Shown here piece after piece: positions 53-39,207 of a stretch of DNA of 39,207 nucleotides (its first letter is position 1; every line of letters begins with the position of its first letter). This stretch comes from an uncultured Candidatus Saccharibacteria bacterium. GTDB lineage: Bacteria; Patescibacteriota; Minisyncoccia; Phycocordibacterales; UBA9973. The position numbers were made by a program, and so were the translations under genes. The notes under the pieces are model-generated. The model worked only from the letters and a program-made list of their open reading frames with translations. It did not search any database and was not told the origin of the DNA. The stretch covers positions 1-39,207 of the forward strand of contig CAYJDV010000002.1 in assembly GCA_964369095.1 (NCBI GenBank). The letters are read 5' to 3'.

Positions 53-731
53 TACTGGAGAGACAGCTATGAAGATAGAGGGGTTGGGTAGTCAAAGCGA
101 CTGGGTTGCAGTAGATTTTTCTCAATACAATACACCGCAAAGAATAGTAAATCGTACAACACTAAAACCAGACACTCTAAAGGTTGGTATGGATATTCAG
201 CAAGGTGGTGTAACTGGTGGTGGTCAAAGATGGATAATCACCGATGTCCTCGGAGATGGGAAGTTTAAGGCTGTGCCGAAAGACAACATTATTGGATGGA
301 GTAGTGAAAAAGAGCTGTATGAACAACTTGATAATTCAAAGAATTTCAGCGAAGTAAAAGGTAATAAATACTTAGAAGATGTGATGGATGATATTTTTGA
401 CAGAAAAATGGAAGCTGACGACCTGTTTGCGAAATACGACTACGACAAAGTATCAGACGAGCTACAAAATCAATATGTAAAAACAATAAAAGATAACCAC
501 AAAGAAGCTTTCGACATCTCAGGTAAGGTAGACACTAACAACCCCATATATAAGTTCTACGAAAAAGAAATGCAGAAATACCTAAATAAATTTGGAGGTA
601 CAAAAGTAGTAGACGATAAGGGTGTAAGTTGGATAGAGGTACAAATTAAAAAAGAATGGGCAAAAATGCCCGTGGAGGCGTTTGCTATAATTGGAGCAGT
701 TGGGCTAGCTTCCCAAAATAATAACAAATAA
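1..731 (+). CDS. C-terminal segment of the ~1320-aa giant virion protein (continues 35924..39155 across the circular junction)
   Basis: The frame of the ORF opening at 35924 maps through the 52-bp overlap onto the frame of track ORF 69..731. My codon-by-codon reading found no stop from 35924 to the TAA at 729-731. Confidence 0.85.
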
Positions 732-735
732 TAAT

Positions 736-2715
736 ATGGGAAAATTCATAATAAGTAAAAACCAACAAGCAGTTCCAGGTCTCCCAATAGGGAAGATTAA
801 CAACCACGAACTAAGAATCAAAGCACTAGAAACTGGTGGTGGTGGCGGTTCTTCTACATTCTTGGGACTTACAGATACACCATCTTCTTACACAGGTCAA
901 GCCCTAAAAGTTATACAAGTAAACGCAGGAGAATCAGCACTGGAATTTATCACTCTATCAGGTGGTGGAGACGCTCTCGTTGCTAACCCTCTTTCACAAT
1001 TCGCTTCAACAACTTCAGCACAGCTTGCAGGGGTTATTTCTGATGAAACAGGAACAGGAGATTTAGTTTTTGCGACATCGCCAACACTTATAACTCCAAA
1101 CATTGGCTCTGCGACAGGTACAGGACTTCTTCTTTCAGGACTTACAGCCTCACGAGTGGTTGTAACAGACGGGTCAAAAAACCTTTCATCGTCTTCAGTA
1201 ACAACAACAACACTTGGATTTTTAGACGCAACTTCATCTATTCAAACACAATTAGACGCTAAAGCTCCGAAAGCCTCACCTACATTCACAGGAATAGTAA
1301 CAGTACCCGCAGATGATTTCACAGTTGGGGCTTCTGTTCCGTTTAGTGATTTAGCAGGTGTACTAACACTTCAAAAGATTGATGCTCTTGACGTGGTAAC
1401 AGAGACAACTATTGAAAATGCCATCGACACACTTCCAAACCTTACTTCAGTTCAAGGAAAAACATTAACGCTTGCGGGAAACTTTATAACGTCTGGTGCA
1501 AACTCTATAACTCTTACCACAACAGGAGCGACAAACGTAACTTTGCCTACAACAGGAACACTTTCAACATTAGCTGGCTCTGAAACGCTAACAAACAAGG
1601 TAATCAATGGTTCAAACAACACGATAACAAATGTGTCTTTGGCTACTGGAGTAACAAGTAATTTACCCGTAACAAATCTTAACTCTGGTACTTCAGCGTC
1701 ATCTTCAACATTTTGGAGAGGGGACGGAACTTGGGCTACTCCTTCTGGAAGCTCGGTTACTATTGGTTCTGCAAAACAAATACCTTTTGTAAATGCAACT
1801 AACAATGACTTTGATTATGATTCTGGCTTTACTTACGACACTTCAACTGATGAAGTCAAAACGTTTGTAATAAGAGCAAACACGGGTTCAACATTTAATC
1901 TTAGGGCTGAGGGTGGTACTGATTTAATCAGGTTAGCGGTTGGGGAGACTCTTGTTTTTCCCACATTTGGAACAGGTCTTTTACACTTAGATAGTGGAGG
2001 AAATGCAACTTCAAGTGCTGTTAATTTAGCGTCCGCAGACGTAACAGGTATTCTTACTGGAACAAATGGCGGTACAGGAATAAACAATGGTTCTAACACA
2101 ATAACTTTGGGAGGAGACCTTACAACTTCAGGTGCAAACGCTCTAACTCTAACTACTACAGGAGCGACAAACGTAACACTTCCAACAACAGGAACGCTGG
2201 TAAATGATGCCGTAACCTCACTTTCATCTTTAAATACAGTTGACACAAGCTTAACTGGTCCATTACGAGCAGATGCAGGAGTTCTGTCATCGGGCTTTGA
2301 GGCATTTGTTTCAACATTTTCAACAACCTCAACGTCTTATGTAGATATTACAGGACTTAATAAAACACTTGCAATTAACAAGAAATATGTTTTCTCAATA
2401 ACAGGTCAATGGACATCAAACCACTCTTCAGGACAAGCTTCTATTGGTCTCACACTTCCAACTGGTGCAACGTTTACAATGACACGTTTAATGGGGCGTA
2501 CTTCTTCTGCTGTAAACTCAGTGATGCAATCTTCAAACGACCAATCTCAAATGGAGCCTATTGCCACAGCAAACGCAATCAGAACAGTTCAAATAACTGG
2601 AATAATCGTTATGGGGGGAACAGCTGGAGACGTTCAATTTAGACTTGTTTCAAACAACGCTTCATATACAGCAACAGCTCAAAATATGTATTTAACAGGA
2701 CACGTACTTAACTAA
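736..2715 (+). CDS. Tail fibre / receptor-binding protein, Ser/Thr/Gly-rich (659 aa)
   Basis: Lies between the giant virion protein and the lysis cassette. Low-complexity T/S/G-rich sequence with a fibre-like motif ([25 protein letters not shown]), an internal 34-codon duplication, and a C-terminus paralogous to 32014..33120. Confidence 0.65.
1462..1563 (+). repeat. Intragenic 34-codon repeat, copy 1 ([34 protein letters not shown])
   Basis: Imperfect direct repeat of 2098..2199. The two copies share an identical 20-mer, acaggagcgacaaacgtaac (1522-1541 = 2158-2177). Confidence 0.9.
2098..2199 (+). repeat. Intragenic 34-codon repeat, copy 2 ([34 protein letters not shown])
   Basis: See copy 1. 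Confidence 0.9.
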
Positions 2716-12828: not shown

Positions 12829-13029
12829 ATGGATAAAATTAAAAGTCTAGGCTGGTTGTTTCGCTCGCTAATACTTCATTCTGACGGAATATGGACGGCA
12901 AAAGCTATCACAGGACAATACAAAGAGCATGTTAATTCAATCGAAGTTATCGGAAAGACACCCGAAGAAGCAGTAGATAAACTAATTGAAAAACTAGAAG
13001 CTAAGGGACTTTTAAACGAATCATTATGA
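12829..13029 (+). CDS. Hypothetical protein (66 aa)
   Basis: Track ORF. ATGA overlap with the next gene. Confidence 0.5.
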   Translation: MDKIKSLGWLFRSLILHSDGIWTAKAITGQYKEHVNSIEVIGKTPEEAVDKLIEKLEAKGLLNESL

Positions 13030-13313
13030 AAAGAATTAAATGCAAAGACGTACTACTCGACTACATACAAACCCACGAAGGGTGGTTGAAGAAAGTAGAC
13101 CTGTACAAAATAGCAGAAGAGTTTAGCCCTGAAACCGCAGGAAGAGCCTTACGTCTTTTAGCCGAAGAAAACAAAATACAAGTACAGTATTACGATAGTA
13201 AATACGCAAAGAATCTAGCAATGTACTCACGTATAGGAGAAGCACCAAAGAAGTTTGAACCAAACATTATTACTAAATCAGACGGAAGTAGAGTTTTATT
13301 AGTTAGAGAATAG
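13026..13313 (+). CDS. Hypothetical protein (95 aa)
   Basis: Track ORF with ATG start. Confidence 0.55.
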   Translation: MKRIKCKDVLLDYIQTHEGWLKKVDLYKIAEEFSPETAGRALRLLAEENKIQVQYYDSKYAKNLAMYSRIGEAPKKFEPNIITKSDGSRVLLVRE

Positions 13314-18580: not shown

Positions 18581-18757
18581 ATGTATCTACCCGTCGAAGA
18601 AATAGACGACAATGATTTCTATCGAGAGAAAAGACAAAAGCAAGCTGAAAAAGAAAAGATAAGACTTCAAGAGGAATGTAAACACAAACACTTTGTTGTT
18701 AGATGTTCTCATTGTAATAGGGTATTAGGAAGTGAAATTAACCATAAAAGGATATGA
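18581..18757 (+). CDS. Hypothetical small protein (58 aa)
   Basis: Hand-translated as MYLPVEEIDDNDFYREKRQKQAEKEKIRLQEECKHKHFVVRCSHCNRVLG.... ATGA overlap with the chaperonin gene. Confidence 0.4.
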   Translation: MYLPVEEIDDNDFYREKRQKQAEKEKIRLQEECKHKHFVVRCSHCNRVLGSEINHKRI

Positions 18758-20187
18758 AAATAATAGAAACAAATATCGAAAAAATAATTTCTGGAATAAA
18801 CAAGACTGCTGATATGTTGTGTCCGACACTTGGCCCATTCGGAACAAACGTAATAATTGGTAGGAAATATCAAAAACCAATTATTGCAAATGATTCTGGA
18901 ACAATCTCGGACAATCTTGTATTTGAAGACGAATCAGAACAAATTGCCTCAGAGATAATAAATGAGGCAACGACTACGGCAGATAAAACAACCCAAGATG
19001 GGAGAACATCAACTGTCGCTATAATGAGACATCTTGTTAACTCTCTGTATAAAAAAACACAAGGTCTCCAAAAGGAAAAACCAAGAAAGCTATACAATAA
19101 AGTTCGAGAAGAATTAGAAACGGCTCAAAAACTACTATTAAAAGAAAAGAAAATTGTCAAAAAGGAGGAAGATTTAAAAAGTGTAGCACTCGGTTCTTCT
19201 CAGAATAAAGAACTTGCAGAGATAATATCTAACACCTTCTGGAAAATAGGAAAAGACGGGGTAATTACGATTGAGGATAATTTCAATCCAGAAATATCAA
19301 TCGTTAAAAAGAACGGACTTGAAATACCATTTAAAATTGTGTCTGACTTTTTAATTAAACAACTTGGACAATCTCCTATTTTAGTTACAACAACAAAGAT
19401 TGATTCAATCAATCAAATAATTCAAATCTATAATGAAATACTAGAAAGGTCTAAATCACAAAAGCTTGGTGTTTATAATTGGGTTATCATTGCCCCAAAC
19501 TTTGAAGACGGGGTAATATCTGAATTTAAGGCATTAGGGGGTGCGTTTGATATTATGCCAATCAAGATTCCTGAATCAAACATTGAGATATACGAGGATA
19601 TTTCAGCAATTTGTGGAACAAAAACATATAAGGGACAACTAGAACTTTTAACATTGTCTGATATTGGAGAACTAAAAGAAATAGTTTCAAATGAAAAAAC
19701 AATAATAACTGGTTCGGTTAGTCCAGATGAACATATAAAATCTCTAAAAGAAAAAGAAATTGACTCTCTTTACGACAAAGAAAGACTTGATAAAAGAATT
19801 GCTAGACTTAAAAACGGAATAGTGGTTTTAAAGATAGGACATAGCCTAGACCAAGACAGGGAGTTTCTTAAACTAAAGGCGAGAGACTGTGTAACCTCTG
19901 TTAAGACGGCACTAAGTGATGGATATGTTAAAGGGGCTGGAGTATCATTAAAGAACGTAGCAGACAAAATGCCGAAAGATAGCATTATCGCAGAATCCTT
20001 AAAAGAGCCATATAGACTAATCCAAGAAAGTAACGGAGGGCCTTTTGAAATACCTGAAAATGTAATAGATTCATATAAAACAGTTGAACAAGAAATTATA
20101 ACATCATGTGTTTTAGCAAGTAATATTATAAACTCACATGGCTCAATAGCAGATAAAACAGAAAAGTCAGAAGACCCTGTGATATAA
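18754..20187 (+). CDS. GroEL/Cpn60-family chaperonin, shortened (477 aa)
   Basis: [30 protein letters not shown] aligns with GroEL's [37 protein letters not shown] corresponds to [65 protein letters not shown] aligns with [55 protein letters not shown]. Confidence 0.85.
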   Translation: [477 protein letters not shown]

Positions 20188-23949: not shown

Positions 23950-24249
23950 ATGAATAAACTAGACAAAGAAACTTCTACAATCGTAAGAACAGAAAAAACA
24001 GTAGAGGAATTGATGAAGCACGATGGCTGGAAAATCGTTGATGAACTGTATAAAAGTAAAATAAAAGACCTTGAAAGCATACTGAACGTTTCAGGTACAA
24101 CAGCAGAACAAGTTTCAATCGATGTAAAATCCAGAGTAATAGCAATGAACTACTTGGTTGATTTCATGACTGAAATACAGGGAATGGCTCAAAATAGTCA
24201 ATTCACAAATCAAGAAGTAAAAAGAGAAGCCTTGATATTTAGGAAGTAG
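23950..24249 (+). CDS. Hypothetical protein in the head module (99 aa)
   Basis: Track ORF with ATG start. Confidence 0.55.
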   Translation: MNKLDKETSTIVRTEKTVEELMKHDGWKIVDELYKSKIKDLESILNVSGTTAEQVSIDVKSRVIAMNYLVDFMTEIQGMAQNSQFTNQEVKREALIFRK

Positions 24250-24311
24250 TTTATCTCCAGCACGCCTTAGCTGGGGGTAAAACCCCTATTATAAGTAAGC
24301 ACATTTAAAAT

Positions 24312-24911
24312 ATGTACGATGAAAATCAAGAGTTAATTAACGATAACGACCTAATTGGTGATGCTAGCAACGACAACGTTGAATCATCAATCTCAGAATC
24401 GTCTGACTCTCAACCTACCCAAGCACAAGTTGAGAATCTTTCGTTAGATGAACTCAATAGGTATTTGGGTAAAAACTACCCAAACAAGGATTCAGCTTTA
24501 AAGTCATTAAAAGATACTTTTAGCTATGTGGGTAAAAAGAAAGAAACTGTTGTCAAAGAGGCTTTCGATGAAAACAAGTTTATTTCAAGGGAACAATACG
24601 AAGAAGACATGTTCTTCTCTCGTAACCCAGAATACACAACTCCTGAAATGAAAGAGATTATTAAATCAATGGCAAAAGCTGACGGCATTAGACCATCAGA
24701 TGTTGTTGAAAAAGACTCATTCAAAAAAGTGTTTGGGGCGGTTAAGGGATATTCAGAATCACAGAACTTAAAGTCTGTGCTTGAAACAAATCCACGTATA
24801 GCTCAAACAAAATCATTACTGAAAGAAGCCCAAGAAGCAAAAATGTCTGGTAACAAAGTGTTAGCAGAAGAACTTGCAACTAAAGCGGTGATGGATGCGT
24901 ACGAGATGTAA
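24312..24911 (+). CDS. Scaffolding protein candidate (199 aa)
   Basis: Acidic, helical-looking sequence lying between the portal and capsid genes. Confidence 0.5.
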   Translation: MYDENQELINDNDLIGDASNDNVESSISESSDSQPTQAQVENLSLDELNRYLGKNYPNKDSALKSLKDTFSYVGKKKETVVKEAFDENKFISREQYEEDMFFSRNPEYTTPEMKEIIKSMAKADGIRPSDVVEKDSFKKVFGAVKGYSESQNLKSVLETNPRIAQTKSLLKEAQEAKMSGNKVLAEELATKAVMDAYEM

Positions 24912-24934
24912 GCGGTACATTAAAACTTAACATT

Positions 24935-25861
24935 ATGGCATTAACAAACTCATATCTTACTTACGGAGATACATCACGAAAGGAAGATGTTGTACTAAAC
25001 TCAATCGAAACATTGACAGCGGAAGAAAACTTCCTGTTGACAACTCTTGGTAAAACAGAAGCGATTGACACAGTTCACTCTTACCTAACTGATTCATTAC
25101 AAACACCAGCGTCTGGAGCGGTAGCAATGGGAACTGATTTCACACCTAACGCACTTACTCAACCAGCTCGACTTACAAACATTGTTGAAGAAATGGAGCA
25201 AACTATTCTTGTATCACGACCACAAGAAAAAGTTCAGCACTACCACGGACAAAACGAAACACAAAGACAAACAACAAAGGCTCTTAAAGACTGGGGTAAC
25301 TCAGCAGAATACGACCTTCTACGTTCAACTTTGGTTTCTGGAGTTTCTGGAACAACTGCAAAAATGAATGGAGTTATCGCTGCGATTTCTAAATCAACAA
25401 ACACAACTGCACACACATCTGGAACAGTATTTTCTGCAACAATCCTAGACGGACTTATGCAAGCAAACTGGGAAAACTCAAATGGCGATGTAGCAACTGA
25501 CCTTGTTGTTGGAGGAGTAATGCGAAGAGTAGTTGACAACTTTGTACAAAAGTCAAACATCGTAGTTAATAACCCGTCTTCTGTGTCTAACATTGTAAAG
25601 ACAGTTACAACTTACGAAACGGCTTTTGGAACAATTTCAATCAACCTACACCGATACATTCAAGAATCTGGTGATGCGACAGGAAGAGTTCTAGCAATTC
25701 GACCTGACAAACTAAAGATTGCTTACCTAGACAGACCAATGATTAAAGATTTGGCTGAAGGTGGAGCATACACAAAGAAAGCTGTTTATGGTTCTTGTAC
25801 TCTAGAAGTACGAAACCAAGATTCAAACTTCTTTGCATCTGGATTCCTAAAATCTGCGTAA
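24935..25861 (+). CDS. Major capsid protein (SU10-type / DUF5309-like)
   Basis: The N-terminus (TYGDTSRKEDVVLNSIETLTAEENFLLTTLGKTEAIDTVHSYLTDSL) follows the pattern I recall for this capsid family. Position and size also fit. Confidence 0.7.
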   Translation: MALTNSYLTYGDTSRKEDVVLNSIETLTAEENFLLTTLGKTEAIDTVHSYLTDSLQTPASGAVAMGTDFTPNALTQPARLTNIVEEMEQTILVSRPQEKVQHYHGQNETQRQTTKALKDWGNSAEYDLLRSTLVSGVSGTTAKMNGVIAAISKSTNTTAHTSGTVFSATILDGLMQANWENSNGDVATDLVVGGVMRRVVDNFVQKSNIVVNNPSSVSNIVKTVTTYETAFGTISINLHRYIQESGDATGRVLAIRPDKLKIAYLDRPMIKDLAEGGAYTKKAVYGSCTLEVRNQDSNFFASGFLKSA

Positions 25862-25882
25862 TCTTCGTACAATAAGATTGTT

Positions 25883-25917
25883 TATCGCCCCTGCTGTTCA
25901 GTATGGCTTGGGCGATA
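25883..25917 (+). terminator. Hairpin after the capsid gene (attenuator or stabiliser; no T-run)
   Basis: The 8-bp stem tatcgccc/gggcgata has a 19-nt loop. Confidence 0.35.
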
Positions 25918-25934
25918 CATACTGAAAATAATCT

Positions 25935-26234
25935 ATGAATACAACCAAAAATAAAATAAAGAACGTTGTTAAACTATATTCGGAAATGTTTAGTGAAGAA
26001 TACAAACAATTCCAAAAGGAATCAGACGAAAGAAGAAGACTTGTACGAGATGAATTTGCCACAATTAAAGATACACAATACATTCAAAGGGCATTATTCT
26101 CAATCCCTGAAAAGTTACACGTGGCACTAATTAAAAACCTAACAGATGAAGAACTAAAATACTGGAAGACAAAAGAGTGTGCTAGATGGTTCGCTAAAAC
26201 ATTCCCAGTATTTACTCTTCCTAAAAAAATATAA
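25935..26234 (+). CDS. Hypothetical protein (99 aa)
   Basis: Track ORF. TAATG overlap with the next gene. Confidence 0.55.
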   Translation: MNTTKNKIKNVVKLYSEMFSEEYKQFQKESDERRRLVRDEFATIKDTQYIQRALFSIPEKLHVALIKNLTDEELKYWKTKECARWFAKTFPVFTLPKKI

Positions 26235-28558
26235 TGAAAGTAGCACTAAGTCTGATTGTAAAAGGAACAGATGAGGAAGCAATACTACTAGACAGATGTC
26301 TGGAGAGTGTATCTCCTTTTGTTGATGGAATATTTATAACCTCGACGCATAAAAAGGGTGACAAACCAAACGAATCAGTTGCTAAGATTGCAAAACTATA
26401 CAACGCAAACCTTTCTACTTTTGAATGGGTAAATGACTTTGCCAAAGCGAGAAACTTTAACTTCTCACAAGTAACAAAAGACTTTGATTACATTATGTGG
26501 TGCGATGCCGATGATGTGTTCAGAGGACTTGAGAAACTAAAACCAACCCTAGAAGAAAATAAAACAGTTGACGTGTTTGCTTTCTGGTATTTGTATGATT
26601 TTGATGAATTTAAGAATCCGACAGTTGTACACAAGAAAAGCCAGCTGGTAAAAAACAATGACTGTGTATATTGGGAAGGCTCACTACACGAAGACTTCGT
26701 AGCTAACAGAGAACTTAACACTAAGTTTATCGAGGGTATAGAACGATTACACTTAACAACACAAGAAAGATTTGAAGTTGCTAAAGGAAGAAACATAGAA
26801 GTTGCACAACACCACACAGAGGAAAAGCCAGAAGACCCACGCTCTTGGTGGAATCTTGCCAACTCCTATTTTGGAGCTGGAGAATATACTAAAGCTAAAG
26901 AATGTTTTGATAAGTTCTATAAAATGTCTCAATCGGAAGATGAAAAGTATTTAGTTAGACTAAGACTTGCACAGATTGAAAAGAGTTTAGGAAACCATGA
27001 TGACGCCGTACTAAACCTGCAAATAGCAATCGGAATGAAGCCAGAGATACCTGATTCATATCTACAAATGGGTCAAATGTATTCTGATTTTAACCTGCTT
27101 GATAAGGCTGAGAAGTTCTTACTACTTGGATTAAAAATGAAGCCACAGTATCACGGGATTATTGTGTATAACCCACGAGACTATGACTACAATCCAATGA
27201 TGCAATTAGCACAGGTTTACTTCAAGAAGAATAGACCAGACCTTGCTCTTAAAATGCTTAAGGGGTGTCTCGCAATCGTACCAGAAAGCGACTACATAAA
27301 AGGACTTGTAAAAGAAATGGAAAAAGAACAAACACGAGTGGAGGAAGTGGTTAAACTTGCTATCAAATTAGACACAATAAAGGATAAGGTTAAACTTAAA
27401 AAGGCACTAGACAAGATACCTAAAGACCTACAATCACACCCAAAGATAAACCAAATCAGAAACCAAAACTTTATTAAGGAAACTTCAACAGGTAAAGATA
27501 TTGCATACTTCTGTGGATTTACAGACCATGTTTGGAATCCTGAAATATTCAAGACAAAAGGCTTTGGTGGTTCAGAGGAGGCGGTGGTTAATCTGTCTAA
27601 GGAGTGGGCTAAACGGGGCTATAACGTAACTGTATACAATAACTGTGGTACGGAAGAGATGACTGCTGACGGGGTTAAGTACAAACCATTCTGGACATTC
27701 AACTCAAAGGATAAGTGGGACTACTTAATTCTTTGGAGACACCCACGCATGCTTGATTACGAAGTAAATGCTACAAATGTTTACGTTGATATGCACGACG
27801 TCGTACCGAAAGGAGAGTTTACAGAATCACGACTCGCTAAGGCCAAGAAGATTCTATTTAAAACAAACTTCCACAGAAACCTATTTCCAAACATACCAGA
27901 TGATAAATGTGAAATAATACCAAACGGAATGGACTTTGAATTGTTCAATCAAGACGTTAAGAAAGACCAATACTTGCTTGTAAACACTTCTTCACCTGAT
28001 AGGTCAATGGATGTTATGCCCAAACTATTCAAGATGATTAAGGAACGTGTACCCAACGCTAAAATGAAATGGTCATATGGCTGGGATGTGTTTGATTCTG
28101 CTCACGGAGATAATAAAGTTATGATGGCGTGGAGACATAAACTACAAAAAGAAATTGACGAAGCTGGTATTGAATCACTTGGTAAAATACCACAATCAGA
28201 ATGTGCTAAACTTTACCTAGAGGGAAATGTTCTAGCCTATCCATCAGAGTTTGCCGAGATTGATTGTATCTCTGTTAAGAAGGCACAGGCTTGCGGAGCT
28301 ATTCCAGTAACAACAGACTTCGGAGCATTTAATGAAAGTGTGCAGTTCGGGGTAAAAATACACTCAGATAAAACAAATGAAACTTGGGCTAAGGATTATC
28401 AAATGAGTTTCGGGCTTGAAGATGAAACTAAACAAAAGGAATGGGTTGAAGCGGTGGTTAAATTATTAGAAACCCCTATTGAGAATCGTGATGAAATGAA
28501 AGAATGGACAAAGAAATTCTCTTGGGACTTAATATCAAATAAATGGTTATGTCAATAG
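26234..28558 (+). CDS. Three-module glycosyltransferase: GT-A (GT2-like), TPR repeats, GT-B (GT4-like), 774 aa
   Basis: aa 1-190: ALSLIVKG...LDRCLESV...WVNDFAKARNF...WCDADDV (DxD at 26504-26515). aa ~203-352: TPR-like helices (WWNLANSYFGAGEYTKAKECF, YLQMGQMYSDFNLLDKAEKFLLLGL, LAQVYFKKNRPDLALKML). aa ~421-774: GFGGSEEAVVNLSKEWAKRGYNVTVY and YPSEFAEIDCISVKKAQACGAIPV. Confidence 0.75.
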   Translation: MKVALSLIVKGTDEEAILLDRCLESVSPFVDGIFITSTHKKGDKPNESVAKIAKLYNANLSTFEWVNDFAKARNFNFSQVTKDFDYIMWCDADDVFRGLEKLKPTLEENKTVDVFAFWYLYDFDEFKNPTVVHKKSQLVKNNDCVYWEGSLHEDFVANRELNTKFIEGIERLHLTTQERFEVAKGRNIEVAQHHTEEKPEDPRSWWNLANSYFGAGEYTKAKECFDKFYKMSQSEDEKYLVRLRLAQIEKSLGNHDDAVLNLQIAIGMKPEIPDSYLQMGQMYSDFNLLDKAEKFLLLGLKMKPQYHGIIVYNPRDYDYNPMMQLAQVYFKKNRPDLALKMLKGCLAIVPESDYIKGLVKEMEKEQTRVEEVVKLAIKLDTIKDKVKLKKALDKIPKDLQSHPKINQIRNQNFIKETSTGKDIAYFCGFTDHVWNPEIFKTKGFGGSEEAVVNLSKEWAKRGYNVTVYNNCGTEEMTADGVKYKPFWTFNSKDKWDYLILWRHPRMLDYEVNATNVYVDMHDVVPKGEFTESRLAKAKKILFKTNFHRNLFPNIPDDKCEIIPNGMDFELFNQDVKKDQYLLVNTSSPDRSMDVMPKLFKMIKERVPNAKMKWSYGWDVFDSAHGDNKVMMAWRHKLQKEIDEAGIESLGKIPQSECAKLYLEGNVLAYPSEFAEIDCISVKKAQACGAIPVTTDFGAFNESVQFGVKIHSDKTNETWAKDYQMSFGLEDETKQKEWVEAVVKLLETPIENRDEMKEWTKKFSWDLISNKWLCQ

Positions 28559-28962
28559 CATCAAAATACGAAGATATGGGTGTAGACCCATTACTAGCAA
28601 CAGAACTTATGGATTTACTCGGAATATATCCAGATGATTTTATAGACCAAAGAAGATTCGAGAAGTTTAAAGACGTTGCAAGATATATTGGTAAGTTTGA
28701 AAACTATCAGTATATGATTAAGAAACTAACATTGGCAAAGAATGTGGACAAGTTAACCCATATCTGGGAATGGTGCGAGTTGTCTAAGCAAAAAGCTGAC
28801 GCAGATAGTCAAATAGATTCTGTATCGCTTGAAGATTCTGAAATGACTGGAATGGTAAACAATCGAGAGGGAATGGAAAAACTATCTAAGATACAAAACC
28901 TATTAAAGGAAAACATAAACAAGTCTTCTAAGTTAGACGAGGAGATGAAGCTATATGGCTAA
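28543..28962 (+). CDS. Hypothetical acidic protein within the glycosylation cassette (139 aa)
   Basis: Track ORF. It overlaps both neighbouring genes. Confidence 0.55.
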   Translation: MVMSIASKYEDMGVDPLLATELMDLLGIYPDDFIDQRRFEKFKDVARYIGKFENYQYMIKKLTLAKNVDKLTHIWEWCELSKQKADADSQIDSVSLEDSEMTGMVNNREGMEKLSKIQNLLKENINKSSKLDEEMKLYG

Positions 28963-29857
28963 GATTGCGTTTGTGTGGCAAGGGATAGACGGAAGATATG
29001 GACACTGGCAAGATGGCCTGTGGCTTGCCATGAAGCACTTAGAGAAAGAATTTGAGGTAACATATCATGACATATATGAAGACATACCCGAGGATTCAAT
29101 CGTATTGTATTGGGAAGCACCTTGTACAATTAACGGAGAGTTTGGAGCTAACTATAAACGAATACAGAACCTACCAAACAAAAAGATTTTACTCTTTGCT
29201 GGTGGTCCCATTAAAAAAGAATGGGTTGATGGTTTTGATATGGTATGTGTAGAGAGTAAGTTAAACAAAGATGAGTTCGACGCTATCGGTGTTCCGAACA
29301 TAACAGCGTTTGGAATCAATGACGAGATATTCAAACCACTTAACTTGCCTAAGAAATACAAAGCAATCCATCAAGGAACTTCTGCTAGTTGGAAAAGACA
29401 ATGGCTTATGGCAGAGGCATTTAGAGAGGGTGCGTTGCTCGTTGGAAGATACCAAGAATCAGACCCAAGACCGTTTGACGATTCTCGCAAGCTGGGAGCT
29501 ACAATACTAGACGAAAAACCATACCCAGAAATTGCTAAGTTAATAAACGAATCAGAAGTGTTAGCACAAACATCAGAGTATTGGGGTGGTGGTCAACGTG
29601 CAACCTTAGAAGCTATGGCTTGTGGTGTTCCAGTAATCTGTATGACAGATAGTCCAAAGAATCGTGAGTATGTAGAAGAGAGTGGAGCTGGCTTAATTTG
29701 TGAACCAGACGCTAATAGTATAAGACGTGCGTACGATGAAATTATGACATGGACAGATGAAGAAAAAATGCGAGGTGTAGAGTATGTAAAAAATAAATGG
29801 ACAGGTAAACATTATTCAGAGAATTTAAAGAAAGCAATTTATGCCATCAACTCCTAA
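28955..29857 (+). CDS. Glycosyltransferase, GT-B fold (group 1-like)
   Basis: SEYWGGGQRATLEAMACGVPVICMTDSPKNREYVEESGAGLICEP is a typical GT1/GT4 C-terminal signature. Confidence 0.7.
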   Translation: MAKIAFVWQGIDGRYGHWQDGLWLAMKHLEKEFEVTYHDIYEDIPEDSIVLYWEAPCTINGEFGANYKRIQNLPNKKILLFAGGPIKKEWVDGFDMVCVESKLNKDEFDAIGVPNITAFGINDEIFKPLNLPKKYKAIHQGTSASWKRQWLMAEAFREGALLVGRYQESDPRPFDDSRKLGATILDEKPYPEIAKLINESEVLAQTSEYWGGGQRATLEAMACGVPVICMTDSPKNREYVEESGAGLICEPDANSIRRAYDEIMTWTDEEKMRGVEYVKNKWTGKHYSENLKKAIYAINS

Positions 29858-30446
29858 AGACCACTTCCAATATACGATTCAAGAATGGAGTAACGACCCA
29901 TTTAAGGAAATCCTAAACAAGGTTAAAGACATTAAAGTTGTCTATGATATTGGTGCAAACTCTGGCGGGTTTTCATTCCTACTTGATTCACTTTTTGATG
30001 ATTTAGATATTTACTGCTTTGAACCAGTTGGAAGAAACTTTGATGAACTTAAAAAGAATATGCCGAACGCCAAATGCCTAAAGTACGGAATCTATTATGG
30101 AGAAAGAGAATCAAGAATACTTTGGCGAGGGGAGAATTGTGGTGCCTTCTTTGTTGAACATGTTAATTCTGGTGAACCAAGAGTTGACATTGGGGAAAGG
30201 GTTGAACTTAGGGAATTAGAAGAACTAAAACTTCCGAAACCAGACCTAATTAAGATTGACATTGAGGGGGCAGAAGAAAATGTAATACCAAACTCTAAGA
30301 TAATTAAAGATACTAAATACTTAATTATTGAATGGCATCCAGACCACGTTCCAGTATTAGACTTCTTTAAAGAACACCTACCCAAACATAAGATTATTCA
30401 CAATATAGAAAACAGACAATTTCTTTTATGCCTAGAATCAGCGTAA
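29841..30446 (+). CDS. FkbM-family methyltransferase
   Basis: VYDIGANSGGFSF (SAM-binding glycine motif) and LIKIDIEGAEENV (the FkbM signature). Confidence 0.7.
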   Translation: MPSTPKDHFQYTIQEWSNDPFKEILNKVKDIKVVYDIGANSGGFSFLLDSLFDDLDIYCFEPVGRNFDELKKNMPNAKCLKYGIYYGERESRILWRGENCGAFFVEHVNSGEPRVDIGERVELRELEELKLPKPDLIKIDIEGAEENVIPNSKIIKDTKYLIIEWHPDHVPVLDFFKEHLPKHKIIHNIENRQFLLCLESA

Positions 30447-31057
30447 TCACCCCGTCGATACGCCCAGAGGGACTTAAAATCGTTCAAGAATGTTTAAAGA
30501 ATCAAACATTTACTGATTTTGAATGGCTTGTTGAGGTTGGATTAGGGAACAAACATGATTTAAACAATGCTTTTAATAAAATGCTCAAACGTGCAAGTGG
30601 TGAACTCATAGTTTTCTACCAAGATTACATAAAAATAGAGAATGACGGATTGGAAAAGTTTTGGAATGAGTATCAAAAGGATAAAAACTATCTAATAACC
30701 GCACCCGTTGGAAAATCAGATGACTATACTAACCCAAAGTACGATTGGAGGGCTTTTAAATACGAAGATATAGGCTTTCAGGGGTGGGAAATAGACTGGG
30801 GAGCTTGTCCAAAATCAATTCTCTTTGAGATTGGTGGATTTAATGAAGAACTAGATAAATACTGGTCGTTTGATAACGTAGACGTTGCATATAGAGCTTT
30901 AAAGCACGGGTATAAGTTTAAATGTATTGACAATAAGTCAGTCGCCAAAGACCACGACAAAACAGAAAAGCACCCATTTAGAGAATTGTTTAACCCTAAA
31001 CATAATAACGAGATGCTATCAAACATTGACAAAGGGAACCACAAAAAGTGGATATGA
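30428..31057 (+). CDS. Glycosyltransferase family 2-like
   Basis: The N-terminal PRISVITPSIRPEGLKIVQECLKNQTFTDFEWLV is typical of GT2. Confidence 0.6.
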   Translation: MPRISVITPSIRPEGLKIVQECLKNQTFTDFEWLVEVGLGNKHDLNNAFNKMLKRASGELIVFYQDYIKIENDGLEKFWNEYQKDKNYLITAPVGKSDDYTNPKYDWRAFKYEDIGFQGWEIDWGACPKSILFEIGGFNEELDKYWSFDNVDVAYRALKHGYKFKCIDNKSVAKDHDKTEKHPFRELFNPKHNNEMLSNIDKGNHKKWI

Positions 31058-31063
31058 TATAAT
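31055..31063 (+). promoter_or_regulatory. Extended -10 TGaTATAAT
   Basis: Read directly. It is followed by the leader hairpin tagaataa/ttattcta (31110-31117/31127-31134). Confidence 0.45.
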
Positions 31064-31154
31064 GGGTATACAAAGCGGATTAACCTTACTTTGTTTTCTC
31101 TCTCATGGTTAGAATAACGAAGGCAATTATTCTAGTCATTAGAAACAAAATAAA

Positions 31155-31847
31155 ATGACTATTGGAAACATATCAAGTTTAATAACTTTTCTCACTAACG
31201 CAGACACAACTGCTTACACAAATGCAAATCGTTTACTAAATATAAACGACCATCTTAATCGTATTCAAACAACAATTCTACGCTCACAAGATGAGTGGGA
31301 TTTTGATGATAAAAACAACACAGACCTACCGATTCTCACAGCGGATATAGTCGCCAATCAACAATATTACACACTTCCAACAGGAATGATTGACATGAAA
31401 AGACTGGAAATGTCTTTTGATGGGGTTACTTTCTATAAGGCGATGCCACTTGATATAAACGAAAGACAAACCGACACAAGCAACCTAAGCGATTTCTCTC
31501 AAAATCAGCCGTATTACGATATGGTTTCAAGTGATACGTTCACACTATACCCAATACCAACAGCTAACGTAACTGGTGGACTTAAAATCTGGGTTTCAAG
31601 AACGCCAGTAGAATTTACATCAGCTGAACTTACAACTGGAACAAAAGAACCTGGATTTGAATCACTATTTCACCAAATGTTAGCTTATGGCTCAGCAATG
31701 GATTTCTGTATGGCTAGAGGTCTTCCACAATATTCAACAATCAAATCAGCTTACGATGAAATGTCTCAATCCCTTTCAAATCATTACGGAGATAAACAAG
31801 AGGACAGGCTAATGAGTATTAGAAGCAATCCAGTAAATTACAAATAA
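31155..31847 (+). CDS. Virion structural protein (possible head-tail adaptor), 230 aa
   Basis: Called on position only: it is the first gene of the tail block. Confidence 0.35.
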   Translation: MTIGNISSLITFLTNADTTAYTNANRLLNINDHLNRIQTTILRSQDEWDFDDKNNTDLPILTADIVANQQYYTLPTGMIDMKRLEMSFDGVTFYKAMPLDINERQTDTSNLSDFSQNQPYYDMVSSDTFTLYPIPTANVTGGLKIWVSRTPVEFTSAELTTGTKEPGFESLFHQMLAYGSAMDFCMARGLPQYSTIKSAYDEMSQSLSNHYGDKQEDRLMSIRSNPVNYK

Positions 31848-31848
31848 T

Positions 31849-32010
31849 ATGTCAACTAGCTGGGATTCATTTACAAAACCTGGGGCTGGTTGGGAATATG
31901 ACCAAGATGGCTATATATACGACCAAGCCCTCGACCCAAACACTGGAGCAATTATTTATTATGATTCAGCGGGAGAAGCAACCCAATGGACAGCAATTAA
32001 CAAACCTTAA
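31849..32010 (+). CDS. Hypothetical small protein (53 aa)
   Basis: Hand-translated as MSTSWDSFTKPGAGWEYDQDGYIYDQALDPNTGAIIYYDSAGEATQWTAINKP. Tightly packed with its neighbours. Confidence 0.45.
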   Translation: MSTSWDSFTKPGAGWEYDQDGYIYDQALDPNTGAIIYYDSAGEATQWTAINKP

Positions 32011-32013
32011 TAT

Positions 32014-33120
32014 ATGAGTACGAATTTCCCAACATCACTTGATGCACTAACAAACCCAACTTCGACAGATAGGGTTTCTACTGTTGGACACGCATCACAA
32101 CACGCAAACATTAACGATGCAGTCGAAGCACTTCAATCAAAGGTTGGGGTAAACTCATCTGCTGTTACTAGTTCACTTGATTACAAGGTAACAAACACAG
32201 CGTCTATTGACCCTGGACACAAACACACGACAGGTTCCCTATCTGTTTCTGGTTTAACAGCAAGTCAACTTCTTAGGGTAAACTCTGGTGGTACTGCAAT
32301 AGAATCATCTGGAAAAACAGTCCCAACAGGAGATATAGTTGGTACATCTGACACACAGGCATTAACAGGAAAAACAATAGACGGAGATTTGAACACGGTT
32401 CAAGATTTAACAGCTAGTGCAGTATTCAAAACTGGAACAGCTGTTCCTATCGCCAATGGTGGAACAGGACAAACATCGCAAACGTCAGCCTTTGATGCCC
32501 TTGCCCCAACAACTACTAAAGGAGACATAATTGTTTCAAATGGAACAGATAATATTCGTGTTGCGGTTGGCTCTAATGACCAAGTTCTTACAGCAGACTC
32601 GACACAGGCGTCGGGGGTAAAATGGGCGTCAGCTGGAACAAACGGATATTGGGACTTCGCAGAACAACTAGCAACCGACTATACAGTTACCAACAATGTA
32701 ACACTTCAAACTGTTACAGGGTTCACTTTTGCTGCTGGGGCAAGTGATATATGGGAAATAGAAATCATTGGTGCGACATATACAAACTCCACAACTGGAG
32801 ATATTATAGCCAATCTTGTAACAACAGGAACATGGATTGTAGATGGTTCTTACTATGAAGCACTTTACTATGGCCCGACTTCTACATTGGTTAATACAAG
32901 TAGAGTGGCGATAAGTTCAACAACAGGAGTTCTGGGGGCATCAACAGTTGTAAATAACGGAGATATTGCGACACCACGTTCGTTTATGCTTAAGTGTCTA
33001 GTTATTATGTCTGGTGCTGGTAACATTAACTTCCAAATTGCAAACGCATCTGCTGGTTCGGGAAGAGATAGTACATTAAAGGCTGGCTCTTACATGTTTG
33101 CTCGAAAACTATCAATATAA
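32014..33120 (+). CDS. Tail fibre / receptor-binding protein 2 (368 aa)
   Basis: Fibre-like N-terminus (FPTSLDALTNPTSTD...HANINDAVEALQSKVG). Contains ANGGTGQTS...KGDIIVSNGTDNIRVAVGSNDQVLTADSTQASGVKWAS. The C-terminus is paralogous to that of 736..2715. Confidence 0.65.
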   Translation: MSTNFPTSLDALTNPTSTDRVSTVGHASQHANINDAVEALQSKVGVNSSAVTSSLDYKVTNTASIDPGHKHTTGSLSVSGLTASQLLRVNSGGTAIESSGKTVPTGDIVGTSDTQALTGKTIDGDLNTVQDLTASAVFKTGTAVPIANGGTGQTSQTSAFDALAPTTTKGDIIVSNGTDNIRVAVGSNDQVLTADSTQASGVKWASAGTNGYWDFAEQLATDYTVTNNVTLQTVTGFTFAAGASDIWEIEIIGATYTNSTTGDIIANLVTTGTWIVDGSYYEALYYGPTSTLVNTSRVAISSTTGVLGASTVVNNGDIATPRSFMLKCLVIMSGAGNINFQIANASAGSGRDSTLKAGSYMFARKLSI

Positions 33121-33121
33121 T

Positions 33122-35923: not shown

Positions 35924-38900
35924 ATGGATAAAACAACTCAACCAAAAGAAACAATGGAACAATTTGGTGCAAGAATACGGGGTAAATACCCAGAGTATTT
36001 AAAGTATTCAAACAAAGAAATTGCACAAAAAATGATTGTTAAATATCCACAGTATGCAACCAATGTTTCTGACATAGAGCAACCAAAACAAGAAAGCTTT
36101 TTAACAAAAGCGGGAAAAACTGTTGCTGGATTTTTTACTGGGGAAACACAAAAACTCGGAAAAACTCTTGGGCAAATCGGTGCAACAGAAGACGTTACTC
36201 AATCACTTAATAAATCAGAACAATTAGCTGGTGGAGTTGAAGCTAATCTTATTAAACAAATACGACTTGCAAAATCACAAGGAAGAGATACTTCAAAATT
36301 AGAAAAAGAATTGGTTAGTATTTCTGGAAGACAAAGACCTGGTCAATTAACAAAAGAAATTATCCCTGGTGCATTAAAATCGAATCGCCAAGTAATAGGA
36401 GAGGTTGTTGGAACTGCGACAGAAGCCCTACAGGGTGGTGCCATTAGTGGAACACGTGGTCTTGGGTTGGCTAAAATCGCTCCAACAGCAGAAAAAGCGG
36501 CAATATCAAAAGCTCAATATTTAGCAAAACCACTTTCTGGAAGACTAAAACAAATCGGAACTGAAACAGTTAAAGATATTGCATCTATTCTTCCGTTTGG
36601 TTACTCATACGACGTTGCTCAAAATTTACAAAACGACAAAACGGGAATGGAGGCATTTAAACCAGGAATGGCGACCATCATGTCAACAGTTATTCCACTT
36701 GGATTGGGAACGATACGAGCAGGAAGACAAATAACCGCAGACACTCTTTCAAACGTGGTTGCACCAAACCTTTCAGGTGTTCAGGCGGAAGCGTACAAAA
36801 GATTACGAACTGGAGATGTTGATTTTAAAAATGCACCAACTCCACAAAAGGCACTAGAAGACGCTCGAATATCAGCGACAGCTTTTAAACAAGCTGTTCA
36901 AGAAGAATTTGGGGAAGGTCAGGAAAAACTAATTACAGAAATGACTGGAAAAAGAATTGGAATAACCGAGAGTGAAAAAGTAAAACTACAAAAAATTGCA
37001 GAAAGATTTGGGTTTTCTGACAGACTACCTCAAAACCCACAAAACATGTCAGTAAAAGAAACAATGGATTTAGTAAAGGAAATTAACTCGATTAAACCAA
37101 TTTCACAACTAGATGACCCATTAATAATGAATCTGAAACTATCATTGATGGATATTAAAAAATCTATCATGGAAAGAGCTGGCTCAAACGAGGGATTCAC
37201 AAATAAGTTTTCAACTATATATAAAAACTATTCAACTAAACAAAAGATGTTGAAAGATATACAAAGTGTTATAGGCAAGATTGGAACATCTCAAAATGGA
37301 ACAAGACTAGCTCTAAACCCAACACAAACACAAACCGCAACATCTCGACTACAAAGAATTTTCCAAGAAAATGGAACAGAATATTTAAAGGCGATTAAAC
37401 AACTTGAATTAGAGACTGGAGAAAATATTTTAGATAAAGTTGCGGCTTCTCAGCTTGCGAATATATTACCAAAGACACTAAGAACAGCCCCAGCGGGATT
37501 GGGGGGAATAATGAACGACGTTGTTTCGGCGGTAACTATCCCATTGTCATCACCAAGATTTTCAGCATTTCTAATATCTCAAATTGGGGGTTATGGTCGT
37601 GGGGCAGTAACAAAATTACTAAATGCTAATCCTAAAATACGAAAAGCTATCTATGATGCGGTTCATAAAGAGAATATGAAGTTCTCAGACGCAGTTGAAC
37701 TTTACGCCATAGACTACATAAAAAACCCAAAGATGGGTGCATCTATTCAAGACGTAAGTAAAAATCAGTTAAATAACCAAAATATAAGTGCCAATAATGG
37801 TAAAATAACCCAAACAAACACTAAAATTCCAACAAATATTGCCATAGATACAAACTCTACAACTAATACTATTAAAAGTCAAGCCTACAAAGGAGAGAAA
37901 GACCTCACAACAAAAATCCTCAAAGACCTAGAGGGAAAAACTACTGTATCTAAACAGTATATTCTTGACGCTACAAACAGAGGTGAACTTAAACAAGTAG
38001 AACGAGATATAACACGACAAGTGCTAGAGGATATGACAAGAAACAAAGAACCTTTAATATCAATTCCTCAAATTAAAAGTAAATACCCGAAACTTGAATT
38101 TGGAATATATGAAAATCCTAGTGAAATAACTTTAAGTAAAATTGTTGTGCCAAAAGCAGAACGAGGTGGTGGAGTAGGTACTTCTGCTATGAATGACTTA
38201 GTCAAGTATGCTGACCAAAGTGGTAAAAAGATAGTATTAACACCATCTACTGATTACGGAGGCAGTAGTGTTTCAAGACTGAAAGACTTTTATAAGAAGT
38301 TTGGCTTTGTTGAAAACGCTGGAAAAAATAAAGATTTCTCTACAAGAGAGTCTATGTTTAGATTGCCTCAAAAGACATATTCTTCCGACACCATAAACGT
38401 CAAAGAATTTGCTGATAAAGTAAAGAGTGAATTGTTGCCTTTGGAAGCAAAAACAAGTGGGTCATCGATACAAAGAAATAAAACATCAGAAGATTATTTA
38501 ATGACTCCACGATACGAAAATATCTCACTTCCAAGTGAATTGAGAGGCAAAATAAAAGACTATCGAGAAAGAATATACAACTCTCCGATTGAAACTAGTG
38601 CAGGTAAAACCCACTTCGGTTCAAATGCAAGAGATACAGCTAAAAACTACTTCGGTCACACCCGTATAGAAGACATGGCAGACAATAAAACTCGTAGAGT
38701 AATTGAAGTACAGAGTGATTTGTATCAGAAGGGGAATTTGGAGAAGGAGGGAGATAATTTCTCAAAAGAAAATCTAAAGAAACTAGGAAGTGATACTGGA
38801 CTTGGTGTATTCAACAAAAGTGACCCATTTAATTACAAAAAAATGGATATTTCAACATTGAAAGTTGGGGATATTGTCGGAGAAAAATATGGCAAACAGT

Positions 38901-39207
38901 ACAAGGTGAATAAAATACTAAATGACAGTGATATAAAAGTGCAAGAACTTTATCGTGGAAATGGTGTAAAAGAATTTGATTTTAAGAAATACACTGTAGC
39001 ACCTGAAGAATATCAATTAAATACAAAAGTCGGTGGAGATGCCAATCAAAGAAGTATACAAGCAAGTAGCTACCAAAATAAAATAAGTCAGAGAGAACAA
39101 GAAATATCTAAACTCCAACAATACAACGACCCTACAGCTCACTTCCGTATGGTACGAGAAGAAATAAAGAAAGCTAGTCAAGATGGTAAAACAAAACTCC
39201 AATTCCC
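35924..39207 (+). CDS. Giant virion protein, N-terminal ~1094 codons (runs off the window end, continues at 1..731; ~1320 aa in total)
   Basis: ATG at 35924, directly after the previous stop. I translated every codon to 39207 and found no stop. The ORF track omits it because it lacks a stop inside the window. It contains a GNAT-like segment at about 38060-38330. Confidence 0.85.
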   Translation, partial: MDKTTQPKETMEQFGARIRGKYPEYLKYSNKEIAQKMIVKYPQYATNVSDIEQPKQESFLTKAGKTVAGFFTGETQKLGKTLGQIGATEDVTQSLNKSEQLAGGVEANLIKQIRLAKSQGRDTSKLEKELVSISGRQRPGQLTKEIIPGALKSNRQVIGEVVGTATEALQGGAISGTRGLGLAKIAPTAEKAAISKAQYLAKPLSGRLKQIGTETVKDIASILPFGYSYDVAQNLQNDKTGMEAFKPGMATIMSTVIPLGLGTIRAGRQITADTLSNVVAPNLSGVQAEAYKRLRTGDVDFKNAPTPQKALEDARISATAFKQAVQEEFGEGQEKLITEMTGKRIGITESEKVKLQKIAERFGFSDRLPQNPQNMSVKETMDLVKEINSIKPISQLDDPLIMNLKLSLMDIKKSIMERAGSNEGFTNKFSTIYKNYSTKQKMLKDIQSVIGKIGTSQNGTRLALNPTQTQTATSRLQRIFQENGTEYLKAIKQLELETGENILDKVAASQLANILPKTLRTAPAGLGGIMNDVVSAVTIPLSSPRFSAFLISQIGGYGRGAVTKLLNANPKIRKAIYDAVHKENMKFSDAVELYAIDYIKNPKMGASIQDVSKNQLNNQNISANNGKITQTNTKIPTNIAIDTNSTTNTIKSQAYKGEKDLTTKILKDLEGKTTVSKQYILDATNRGELKQVERDITRQVLEDMTRNKEPLISIPQIKSKYPKLEFGIYENPSEITLSKIVVPKAERGGGVGTSAMNDLVKYADQSGKKIVLTPSTDYGGSSVSRLKDFYKKFGFVENAGKNKDFSTRESMFRLPQKTYSSDTINVKEFADKVKSELLPLEAKTSGSSIQRNKTSEDYLMTPRYENISLPSELRGKIKDYRERIYNSPIETSAGKTHFGSNARDTAKNYFGHTRIEDMADNKTRRVIEVQSDLYQKGNLEKEGDNFSKENLKKLGSDTGLGVFNKSDPFNYKKMDISTLKVGDIVGEKYGKQYKVNKILNDSDIKVQELYRGNGVKEFDFKKYTVAPEEYQLNTKVGGDANQRSIQASSYQNKISQREQEISKLQQYNDPTAHFRMVREEIKKASQDGKTKLQF
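39156..39207. repeat. 52-bp exact copy of the window start (1-52)
   Basis: Same 52-mer as positions 1-52. Confidence 0.95.

Follow-up and report, generated by a model that had tools for sequence, protein, structure and literature searches.

What are glycosyltransferases (GTs) doing in the head gene block of a phage, and what do they modify? This question is raised by a stretch of 39,207 nucleotides deposited under an uncultured Candidatus Saccharibacteria bacterium (contig CAYJDV010000002.1 of GenBank assembly GCA_964369095.1), which we analysed in its full length and refer to as the window. The window is a complete circular phage genome with a true length of 39155 bp, as its first 52 bases (1-52) are an exact copy of its last 52 bases (39156-39207). 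Six plus-strand genes at 25935-31057, among them genes for GTs and for a methyltransferase, lie between the genes for the major capsid protein and the head-to-tail adaptor. We consider the chances about even that this region is a virus-encoded module for cytoplasmic protein glycosylation that has become fixed in the head block of a large clade of uncultured podoviruses.

Gene content and position of the module

The upstream boundary of the module is the gene for an SU10-type major capsid protein (24935..25861, +; PF17236, E 7e-47) and the downstream boundary the gene for an SU10-type head-to-tail adaptor (31155..31847, +; PF24175, E 6e-11). Between them we found, all on the plus strand, s99 (25935..26234, 99 aa), GT774 (ORF1, 26234-28558, 774 aa), acid139 (ORF2, 28543..28962, 139 aa), GTB300 (ORF3, 28955..29857, 300 aa), a gene for an FkbM-family S-adenosylmethionine (SAM)-dependent methyltransferase (ORF4, 29841..30446, 201 aa) and GT2_209 (ORF5, 30428..31057, 209 aa). 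A preliminary description of this DNA, made from the sequence alone, had reported the last five as a run of plus-strand ORFs overlapping by 8-19 nt. All five were recovered at the same coordinates, with successive overlaps of 16, 8, 17 and 19 nt; an independent gene caller set the start of ORF2 further downstream, which shortens the product to 128 aa and removes the overlap. That description had also placed the cassette directly after the capsid gene, which has to be corrected, as the 99-aa ORF at 25935-26234 intervenes and belongs with the cassette.

The cassette lies within the run of morphogenetic genes, as previously described, and G+C content is even over the cassette and its flanks. Counts of promoter and terminator signals in 24000-33200 were at or below shuffled expectation and thus not above background, a result that does not establish operon structure. 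A hydropathy scan detected no transmembrane-like segment in any of the cassette proteins (maximum 19-residue hydropathy ≤1.2), and neither an integrase nor another lysogeny gene was identified among the ORFs scanned in the complete genome, this and the other gene-content scans covering ORFs down to ~110 aa. Both results are in line with the earlier view that the cassette differs from a classical seroconversion moron. Genes for nucleoside diphosphate (NDP)-sugar synthesis were likewise not seen in the window, so that the earlier statement to this effect stands for the ORFs covered by the scan.

Conservation in related phages

More than 1100 homologues of GT774 were found, of which the top 120 were full length and 56-82% identical, their contigs reaching 38-43 kb. 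Loci were collected from IMG/VR via GT774 (19) and independently via the capsid protein (21), and 33 loci were compared. GT774 was located downstream of the capsid gene in 33 of 33 of these related metagenomic phage loci, and s99 together with GT774 was present in all 18 capsid-selected loci whose contig reaches past the capsid gene. The common gene order was terminase, portal, small ORF, scaffold, capsid, an optional Cpn60-like gene, s99 and GT774, followed by a variable slot, GTB300, a second variable slot, GT2_209 and the adaptor gene, which also marks the end of the cassette in the relatives. The position of the cassette is kept in these related phage loci. The Cpn60-like gene was found between the capsid gene and s99-GT774 in L005, L007-L011, L018, L025, L070, L071, L088-L090 and other loci; in the phage record MW202497, a Cpn60 homologue was encoded between two GT genes.

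The GTs also ranked high in sequence conservation. Expressed as medians to the window over the 33 loci, identities were 63% for the capsid protein, 54% for GT774, 53% for GTB300 (present in 22/33 loci), 49% for GT2_209 (present in 16/33), 47% for the portal, 39% for the scaffold and 36% for the adaptor protein, which makes GT774 the most conserved product of the head module after the capsid protein. The same arrangement was seen in phages with a capsid protein only ~26% identical to that of the window, namely MW202524 from Manatee Spring and locus L040. SU10-type phages without GTs showed a shorter order at this site, in which the capsid gene is followed by a small ORF and an adaptor-like gene with no GT genes between. 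Examples are the Pseudomonas phage Lyrsu01 and the Rhizobium phage RHph_Y25, both from cultured hosts, and another spring phage.

When 50,697 phage records were searched with GT774 by tblastn (the smaller GTs were not searched), only 8 matches were obtained, all from uncultured phages and none from an actinophage. No cultured phage with GT774 and no near-identical DNA to the window were found among the phage records. As far as gene order and distribution can tell, the module is a clade-level acquisition that has since been fixed, and not a recent insertion in one genome. The picture of a cassette wedged into the structural genes, drawn in the preliminary description, hence gives way to that of a fixed core of a large clade, given the number of homologues and the presence of the module in all informative related loci. 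The view that capsid-adjacent phage GTs are otherwise rare does not hold for metagenomes.

Full-length homologues of GT774 were further located on short or phage-size (~41-42 kb) contigs that had been binned into metagenome-assembled genomes (L024, L025, L036 and L041; also L026, L027 and L040). Some of the bin labels belonged to the Candidate Phyla Radiation (Taylorbacteria, Levyibacteriota, Saccharibacteria, Peribacteria), and others were Cellvibrionaceae, an actinobacterium and Clostridia. A GT774 copy flanked by host genes was not seen among these binned contigs. The labels give no more than hints of possible Patescibacteria hosts. The Peribacteria-binned locus (L041) carried two GT774-like genes in tandem.

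GT774, a three-domain enzyme

An AlphaFold2 model of GT774, built on 30 homologues and with a mean pLDDT of 91.1, showed a GT-A domain (residues 1-175; 26234..26758, +), a block of stacked helices (residues 177-412; 26762..27469, +) and a GT-B domain with two Rossmann folds (residues 420-774; 27491..28558, +). For the first of these domains, the Pfam GT2 family PF00535 scored 31.3 bits on residues 48-131 (cut-off 23.3), and the DADD motif (26504-26515) corresponds to residues 91-94, of which D91, D93 and D94 are invariant across the 30 homologues. The central helical repeat showed strong TPR matches over residues ~190-350 (TPR_8, E 9e-15, plus other TPR families in Pfam), and a GT774 profile matched the TPRs of OGT and SPINDLY in the PDB. 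The C-terminal domain is a divergent, GT4-like GT-B according to the model and to Foldseek, which aligned it with the GT4 alpha-1,2-glucosyltransferase tll1591 (TMt 0.69-0.70). In sequence searches, its residues 444-737 scored under the cut-offs of GT4/GT1 families (PF13439, 24.2 bits against 28.5; PF00534, 21.8 bits against 26.4), and the GT-B sub-profile had no significant match among PDB sequences. The GFGGSEE motif and E675 of this domain are invariant in the homologues.

A search of all PDB sequences with the N-terminal sub-profile gave GmaR (4e-16), SunS (3e-6) and ThuS (6e-4) as the only significant matches. With the whole model, Foldseek ranked SunS/ThuS first (E 1.7e-16; TMt 0.67 and rmsd 3.4 Å for 7msp), followed by SPINDLY and OGT, which reached E values of 1e-11 to 1e-15 but with an rmsd of 19-25 Å. 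The N-terminal GT-A is accordingly of the GmaR/SunS type, and the domain order of GT-A followed by a helical repeat is the GmaR/SunS-type layout by both sequence and structure similarity. Because the N-terminal domain has only GmaR and SunS/ThuS as sequence relatives in the PDB, all of them protein or peptide glycosyltransferases, GT774 looks like a cytoplasmic protein glycosyltransferase and not like a polysaccharide or DNA enzyme. A protein acceptor, as proposed in the preliminary description, would thereby be favoured. For each half of GT774, the nearest characterised analogues are likewise cytoplasmic protein-glycosylating enzymes. We also considered an assignment of GT774 to GT41 (OGT/SPINDLY), which was rejected on the missing PF13844 match and the high Foldseek rmsd.

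The same features bear on the idea that the GTs hypermodify bases of the phage DNA with sugar as a protection from restriction. Phage GTs are known to act in DNA glycosylation (Pyle 2024, as cited in PMC12619734), but the TPR domain and the affinity to GmaR and SunS point to protein substrates, and the genes are located in the head module, not in the replication module. Moreover, the ORFs scanned included no gene for a deoxynucleoside monophosphate (dNMP) hydroxymethylase, for a thymidylate-synthase-like protein or for base modification of another kind. We therefore regard DNA as a highly improbable target.

Homologues of the TPR plus GT-B half (35-39% identity) were also encoded on Acidobacteriaceae chromosomes, inside a 1507-aa protein with a GT41 (OGT) domain. 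PF13844 was found only in this fusion and not in GT774 of the window. In the Acidobacteriaceae locus L030 (7806-12329), the domain order of the 1507-aa protein was TPR, GT4-like, TPR and GT41 (OGT), with the first GT being a cellular relative of the phage GT-B domain. Neighbouring genes encoded two alpha-L-fucosidases, a SASA esterase and a GtrA-domain protein. The 1507-aa protein may represent an uncharacterised two-headed bacterial protein glycosyltransferase. Fold searches further showed that related, unstudied GT2-TPR proteins and GT-FkbM fusions occur in other uncultured phages and giant viruses, the matches to GT774 in BFVD including giant-virus GT2 proteins and phage GT-FkbM fusions.

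Partner enzymes and s99

Profile and structure searches (Pfam, TIGRFAM, PDB profiles, Foldseek) supported the GT and FkbM methyltransferase folds that had been proposed from motifs, with one qualification for ORF5. GTB300 matched Glycos_transf_1 (PF00534, 42.8 bits, cut-off 26.4) and PF13692 (36 bits, cut-off 27) with its C-terminal half only, and also the glycosyltransferase family phrog_2170. The ORF4 protein matched PF05050 (Methyltransf_21, FkbM; 37.2 bits, cut-off 22.7) and TIGR01444 (60.8 bits, cut-off 37.7), and the glycine-rich SAM motif VYDIGANSGGFS was seen in its sequence. Neither of these two proteins had significant matches among PDB sequences. As a single sequence, GT2_209 remained under the Pfam GT2 cut-off (16.7 bits against 23.3). 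A GT-A fold is nevertheless supported for this protein at the level of family profiles, because the profile of 11 homologues (A2) matches the chondroitin synthase GT2 domain (E 4e-6) and SpsA (E 1.4e-4).

For acid139, no family match was obtained in Pfam, PHROG or NCBIfam, in agreement with the earlier finding of no recognisable motif. The protein is acidic with a coiled-coil-like C-terminus, and homologues occupy the identical slot after GT774 in L019, L072, L075, L076 and L082. It is a subclade-specific accessory.

The small gene s99 encodes a basic, all-helical protein, and its stop codon and the start of GT774 have base 26234 in common. In 28 of the 33 related loci s99 directly precedes the GT774 homologue, and it stays beside GT774 even where a chaperonin gene separates the capsid gene from s99. 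An s99 family HMM matched the ORF preceding the GT gene in the distant phage MW202524 (E 3e-6) but none of the ~105-aa ORFs located after the capsid gene of GT-less relatives. No Pfam, PHROG, NCBIfam or PDB match was obtained, with nothing below E 0.1 in the PDB profile search, and the AlphaFold2 model (pLDDT 55; the homologue search gave 4 sequences) was unusable. We conclude that s99 is a sixth, previously unrecognised member of the module.

The coupling of s99 to GT774 in position, down to the common base, could also mean that the enzymes glycosylate a small non-virion phage peptide or protein. By analogy with SunS and its substrate sublancin, s99 itself would then be the candidate, as a regulatory, chaperone-like or toxin-like glycoprotein. 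The top structural matches of GT774 fit this idea: SunS and ThuS are peptide S-glycosyltransferases (glycocins; SPbeta prophage and Bacillus), and they share with GT774 the order of GT-A and helical repeat domain as well as a polypeptide substrate, which for GT774 is predicted. SunS, however, modifies a Cys of a secreted bacteriocin with a single sugar, and its gene lies in a cluster that also encodes a transporter and oxidoreductases, whereas no transporter or thiol-disulfide oxidoreductase is present in the phage module. GT774 further differs by an extra GT-B domain and by partner GTs, so that four catalytic domains plus tailoring enzymes exceed the needs of a single-sugar glycocin. s99 also lacks a leader peptide or cysteine pattern typical of glycocins, and its structure could not be modelled. 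A small peptide as the target is in our view rather improbable.

Variable tailoring slots

The positions between the conserved GTs were filled differently among the relatives. Slot enzymes included members of Methyltransf_24, Methyltransf_11/25 and Methyltransf_23, extra GT2s, a cytidylyltransferase, an NDP-sugar epimerase/dehydratase and a NodS-like methyltransferase, and the slot contents comprised four methyltransferase families across the relatives. The FkbM gene of the window was common to only few relatives (L019, L081 and L090); elsewhere its slot held Methyltransf_24, _11/_25 or _23 or an extra GT2. The slot after GT774, occupied by acid139 in the window, encoded a methyltransferase, a cytidylyltransferase or an HNH-like ORF in other loci. 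With a conserved core and swappable tailoring enzymes, the module resembles, by analogy, a glycan-diversity locus or a flagellin glycosylation island. The variable slots suggest diversifying selection on the glycan.

Some relatives showed further insertions. In L092, the capsid gene was split into two pieces with a 155-aa ORF between them. L083 carried an HNH endonuclease gene, homologous to window 6163-6555, between the capsid gene and s99, and the HNH-like ORF in the slot after GT774 was that of L015 (10304-10759). These features are traces of mobile elements inside the module of relatives. Locus L007 encoded an 841-aa protein with pentaxin and CBM_4_9 domains (10773-13298) between the GT genes and the adaptor gene.

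Candidate acceptors and proposed mechanism

If the module acts on proteins of the virion, acceptors might be sought among Ser/Thr-rich structural proteins. The highest Ser+Thr content of all ORFs >60 aa (28.2%) was found in a fibre-like protein of 659 aa without family match (736..2715, +). Further Ser/Thr-rich proteins are a second fibre-like protein with 26.4% and no family beyond phrog_32934 (32014..33120, +), a protein encoded at 33122-34603 (22%), the capsid protein (24935-25861; 20.5%) and the adaptor protein (31155-31847; 19.6%). The capsid protein contains a Ser/Thr patch, SKSTNTTAHTSGT, that is conserved within the clade. We rejected this patch as an acceptor marker since its flanking motif is also present in GT-less relatives, with a Gly-rich insertion at the site. 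The earlier proposal that fibres and capsid are the acceptors remains a guess.

The mechanism that we envisage by analogy, and to which we give about even chances, is that proteins of the virion are O-glycosylated late and in the cytoplasm, with a methylated glycan that differs between strains. Upon late expression, GT774 would dock on a newly made structural protein via its central TPR domain, and its GmaR/SunS-like GT-A would start the glycan on the side chain of a Ser or Thr. The GT-B of GT774, GTB300 and GT2_209 would then extend the chain from host nucleotide sugars. The FkbM enzyme would O-methylate one of the sugars, a step for which other strains would use different enzymes. The virion would end up with a glycan coat that varies from strain to strain. 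Acceptor, linkage, sugars and order of steps are putative in this scheme, and the pay-off could be shielding, stability, or adhesion and host range.

A more far-reaching interpretation, to which we give somewhat less than an even chance, is that GT774 represents a hitherto undescribed two-headed protein O-glycosyltransferase, with a GmaR-like GT-A and a GT-B on one TPR dock, and serves as a core morphogenetic enzyme in a very large clade of uncultured ~40-kb SU10-type podoviruses, under stronger constraint than the portal. Together with s99 and the swappable enzymes it might produce a different methylated glycan coat for each strain and thus constitute a phage 'glyco-serotype' system with the architecture of a flagellin glycosylation island.

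Several observations weigh against virion glycosylation by this module. No candidate acceptor can be singled out, and the capsid patch is partly present in GT-less relatives. Activity is not assured, on sequence grounds, for two of the catalytic domains: the position of the second Glu of the EX7E motif is an invariant K683 in the GT-B of GT774 (the motif assignment is our own reading), and the DXD position of GT2_209 is a non-canonical Q65-D66-Y67, in which Q65 and D66 are invariant in the family. The relatives of GT774 found in the phage collection by tblastn were all uncultured records. That the cassette is co-transcribed with the structural genes is deduced only from the close packing of the genes and from missing signals. 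Finally, soluble GT-A/GT-B enzymes can also act on lipid-linked wall polymers, as TarS, TarM and the prophage-encoded TarP do when they glycosylate wall teichoic acid from the cytoplasmic side. A lack of membrane segments hence does not settle the matter.

The Tar enzymes at the same time count in favour of a different target, namely a host component such as a wall or teichoic polymer, or a surface protein (pilin, flagellin or S-layer) that would be glycosylated in the cytoplasm. Its modification would hide receptors and so keep progeny from being lost on debris, or shut out rival phages. The slot enzymes of the relatives agree with such a role, as the TagD-like (glycerol-3-phosphate-type) cytidylyltransferase would also fit teichoic-acid-type chemistry and an NDP-sugar epimerase is likewise found among them; the former thereby also speaks against a virion target. 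Receptor-masking morons, however, are usually sporadic and located near lysogeny genes. In contrast, every relative has the module in the same place, between capsid and adaptor, and the GTs of the module exceed the portal in conservation. The ORFs scanned included neither an integrase nor a lysogeny gene (6825-8048 encodes an exonuclease), and the cassette has no flippase and no membrane GT. Phage GTs have classically been tied to changes of the host surface (reviewed in PMC12619734), and GmaR and FlmG, the closest characterised relatives, act on host flagellins (PMC9638930; PMC7591256). Taking these points together, we consider a host target unlikely, and if it did apply, the strict conservation inside a morphogenetic block would need explaining.

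Comparison with known systems

Gtr-type O-antigen cassettes consist of the GtrA flippase, a bactoprenol GT and the integral-membrane GtrC, usually beside the integrase in temperate phages. The phage cassette differs in that it has no membrane components, no integrase was identified in the genome scan, and it sits between the capsid and adaptor genes.

Closer parallels are found among flagellin-modifying enzymes. GmaR of Listeria combines a GT with TPRs and transfers GlcNAc to flagellin (PMC9638930), and FlmG of Caulobacter is a cytoplasmic flagellin O-glycosyltransferase of TPR plus GT-B, in which the TPR binds flagellin (PMC7591256). Like GT774, as predicted here, these are soluble cytoplasmic enzymes with TPRs beside the catalytic domain, and the N-terminal domain of GT774 is related in sequence to the GT of GmaR. 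The module also shares with flagellin glycosylation islands the combination of an initiating GT, which would be GT774 here, with extra GTs and methyltransferases. In contrast to GmaR and FlmG, GT774 has a GmaR-like GT-A on one side of its TPR domain and a GT-B on the other, and is virus-encoded in a head block. It lacks the antirepressor domain of GmaR, and no flagellar genes are located nearby. OGT and SPINDLY (GT41) resemble GT774 in having a TPR array followed by a GT-B, and their TPRs match by sequence, but the similarity is one of domain order and not of a common catalytic family (rmsd >19 Å).

Among viruses, phage GTs have been reported to decorate capsid or tail proteins of the mycobacteriophages Che8, Corndog and Myrna (Freeman 2023, as cited in PMC12363180 and PMC12619734). 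Phage-encoded GTs for virion proteins, shown there, are proposed here. A sequence relationship to GT774 was not detected by tblastn, and hosts and morphotypes differ. The module described here further differs by its TPR-bearing fused enzyme, its swappable methyltransferases and its clade-wide fixation. In chlorovirus PBCV-1, the protein A064R, in which a methyltransferase is combined with two GT domains, works on the glycans of the capsid (PMC7826918). Together with A111/114R, it represents virus-encoded cytoplasmic multidomain GTs plus methyltransferase that produce methylated glycans on the major capsid protein (PMC7826918), comparable to what we propose for the phage module. PBCV-1 is, however, a giant virus of eukaryotes with N-linked glycans and enzymes without TPR, and homology is not established beyond the GT folds.

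We found no published description of a capsid-adjacent GT-A/TPR/GT-B module in the literature. The fusion itself, the partner s99, the capsid-adjacent fixation in a very large uncultured clade and the modular slots appear to be new. According to PMC12363180 and PMC12619734, a few mycobacteriophages have been shown to glycosylate their virions with enzymes of their own. The clade described here comprises >1000 metagenomic members from varied samples, and its enzyme set is much larger than, and unlike, that of the mycobacteriophages. If the virions are glycosylated, self-glycosylation would be common in environmental phages and not a curiosity, and the clade would offer a natural series of glycan-coat variants in which shielding from defences and grazers, stability and adhesion could be probed. 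The GT-A/TPR/GT-B fusion would in that case also be a compact enzyme for site-directed protein glycoengineering.

Other features of the genome

The junction of the circular genome is spanned by a 1310-aa ORF (35954..39207 joined to 53..731), so that the ORF listed at 69-731 is the C-terminal part of this protein. Its residues ~707-812 matched phrog_10691 and phrog_11975, both families of unknown function, and a role as an internal or ejection protein is possible. A search of the window for tRNA genes gave none.

The sole sizeable minus-strand block (6163-8048) encodes an HNH/endonuclease VII-like protein (6163-6555) and a 407-aa DNA repair exonuclease (phrog_704, E 6e-62). The latter gene (6825-8048, -) was also considered as an integrase, a candidate that was rejected in favour of the exonuclease. 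Local G+C content reaches 0.41-0.44 at 7001-9000, coinciding with this block, compared to ~0.33-0.38 elsewhere.

A lysis pair is located at 2896-4235. It consists of a Phage_holin_4_1 holin (2896-3333) and a 300-aa protein (3333-4235) with DUF5675 over its C-terminal half, which is presumably an endolysin of an uncharacterised family. In one relative (L072, 3934-4626), a HAD/trehalose-phosphatase-like gene was found between the terminase and portal genes.

The window also encodes a Cpn60/GroEL-like chaperonin (18754..20187, +; PF00118, E 5e-19; phrog_5725, E 7e-50). Its gene is located upstream of the terminase region, and the chaperonin may fold the capsid protein or the large GT.

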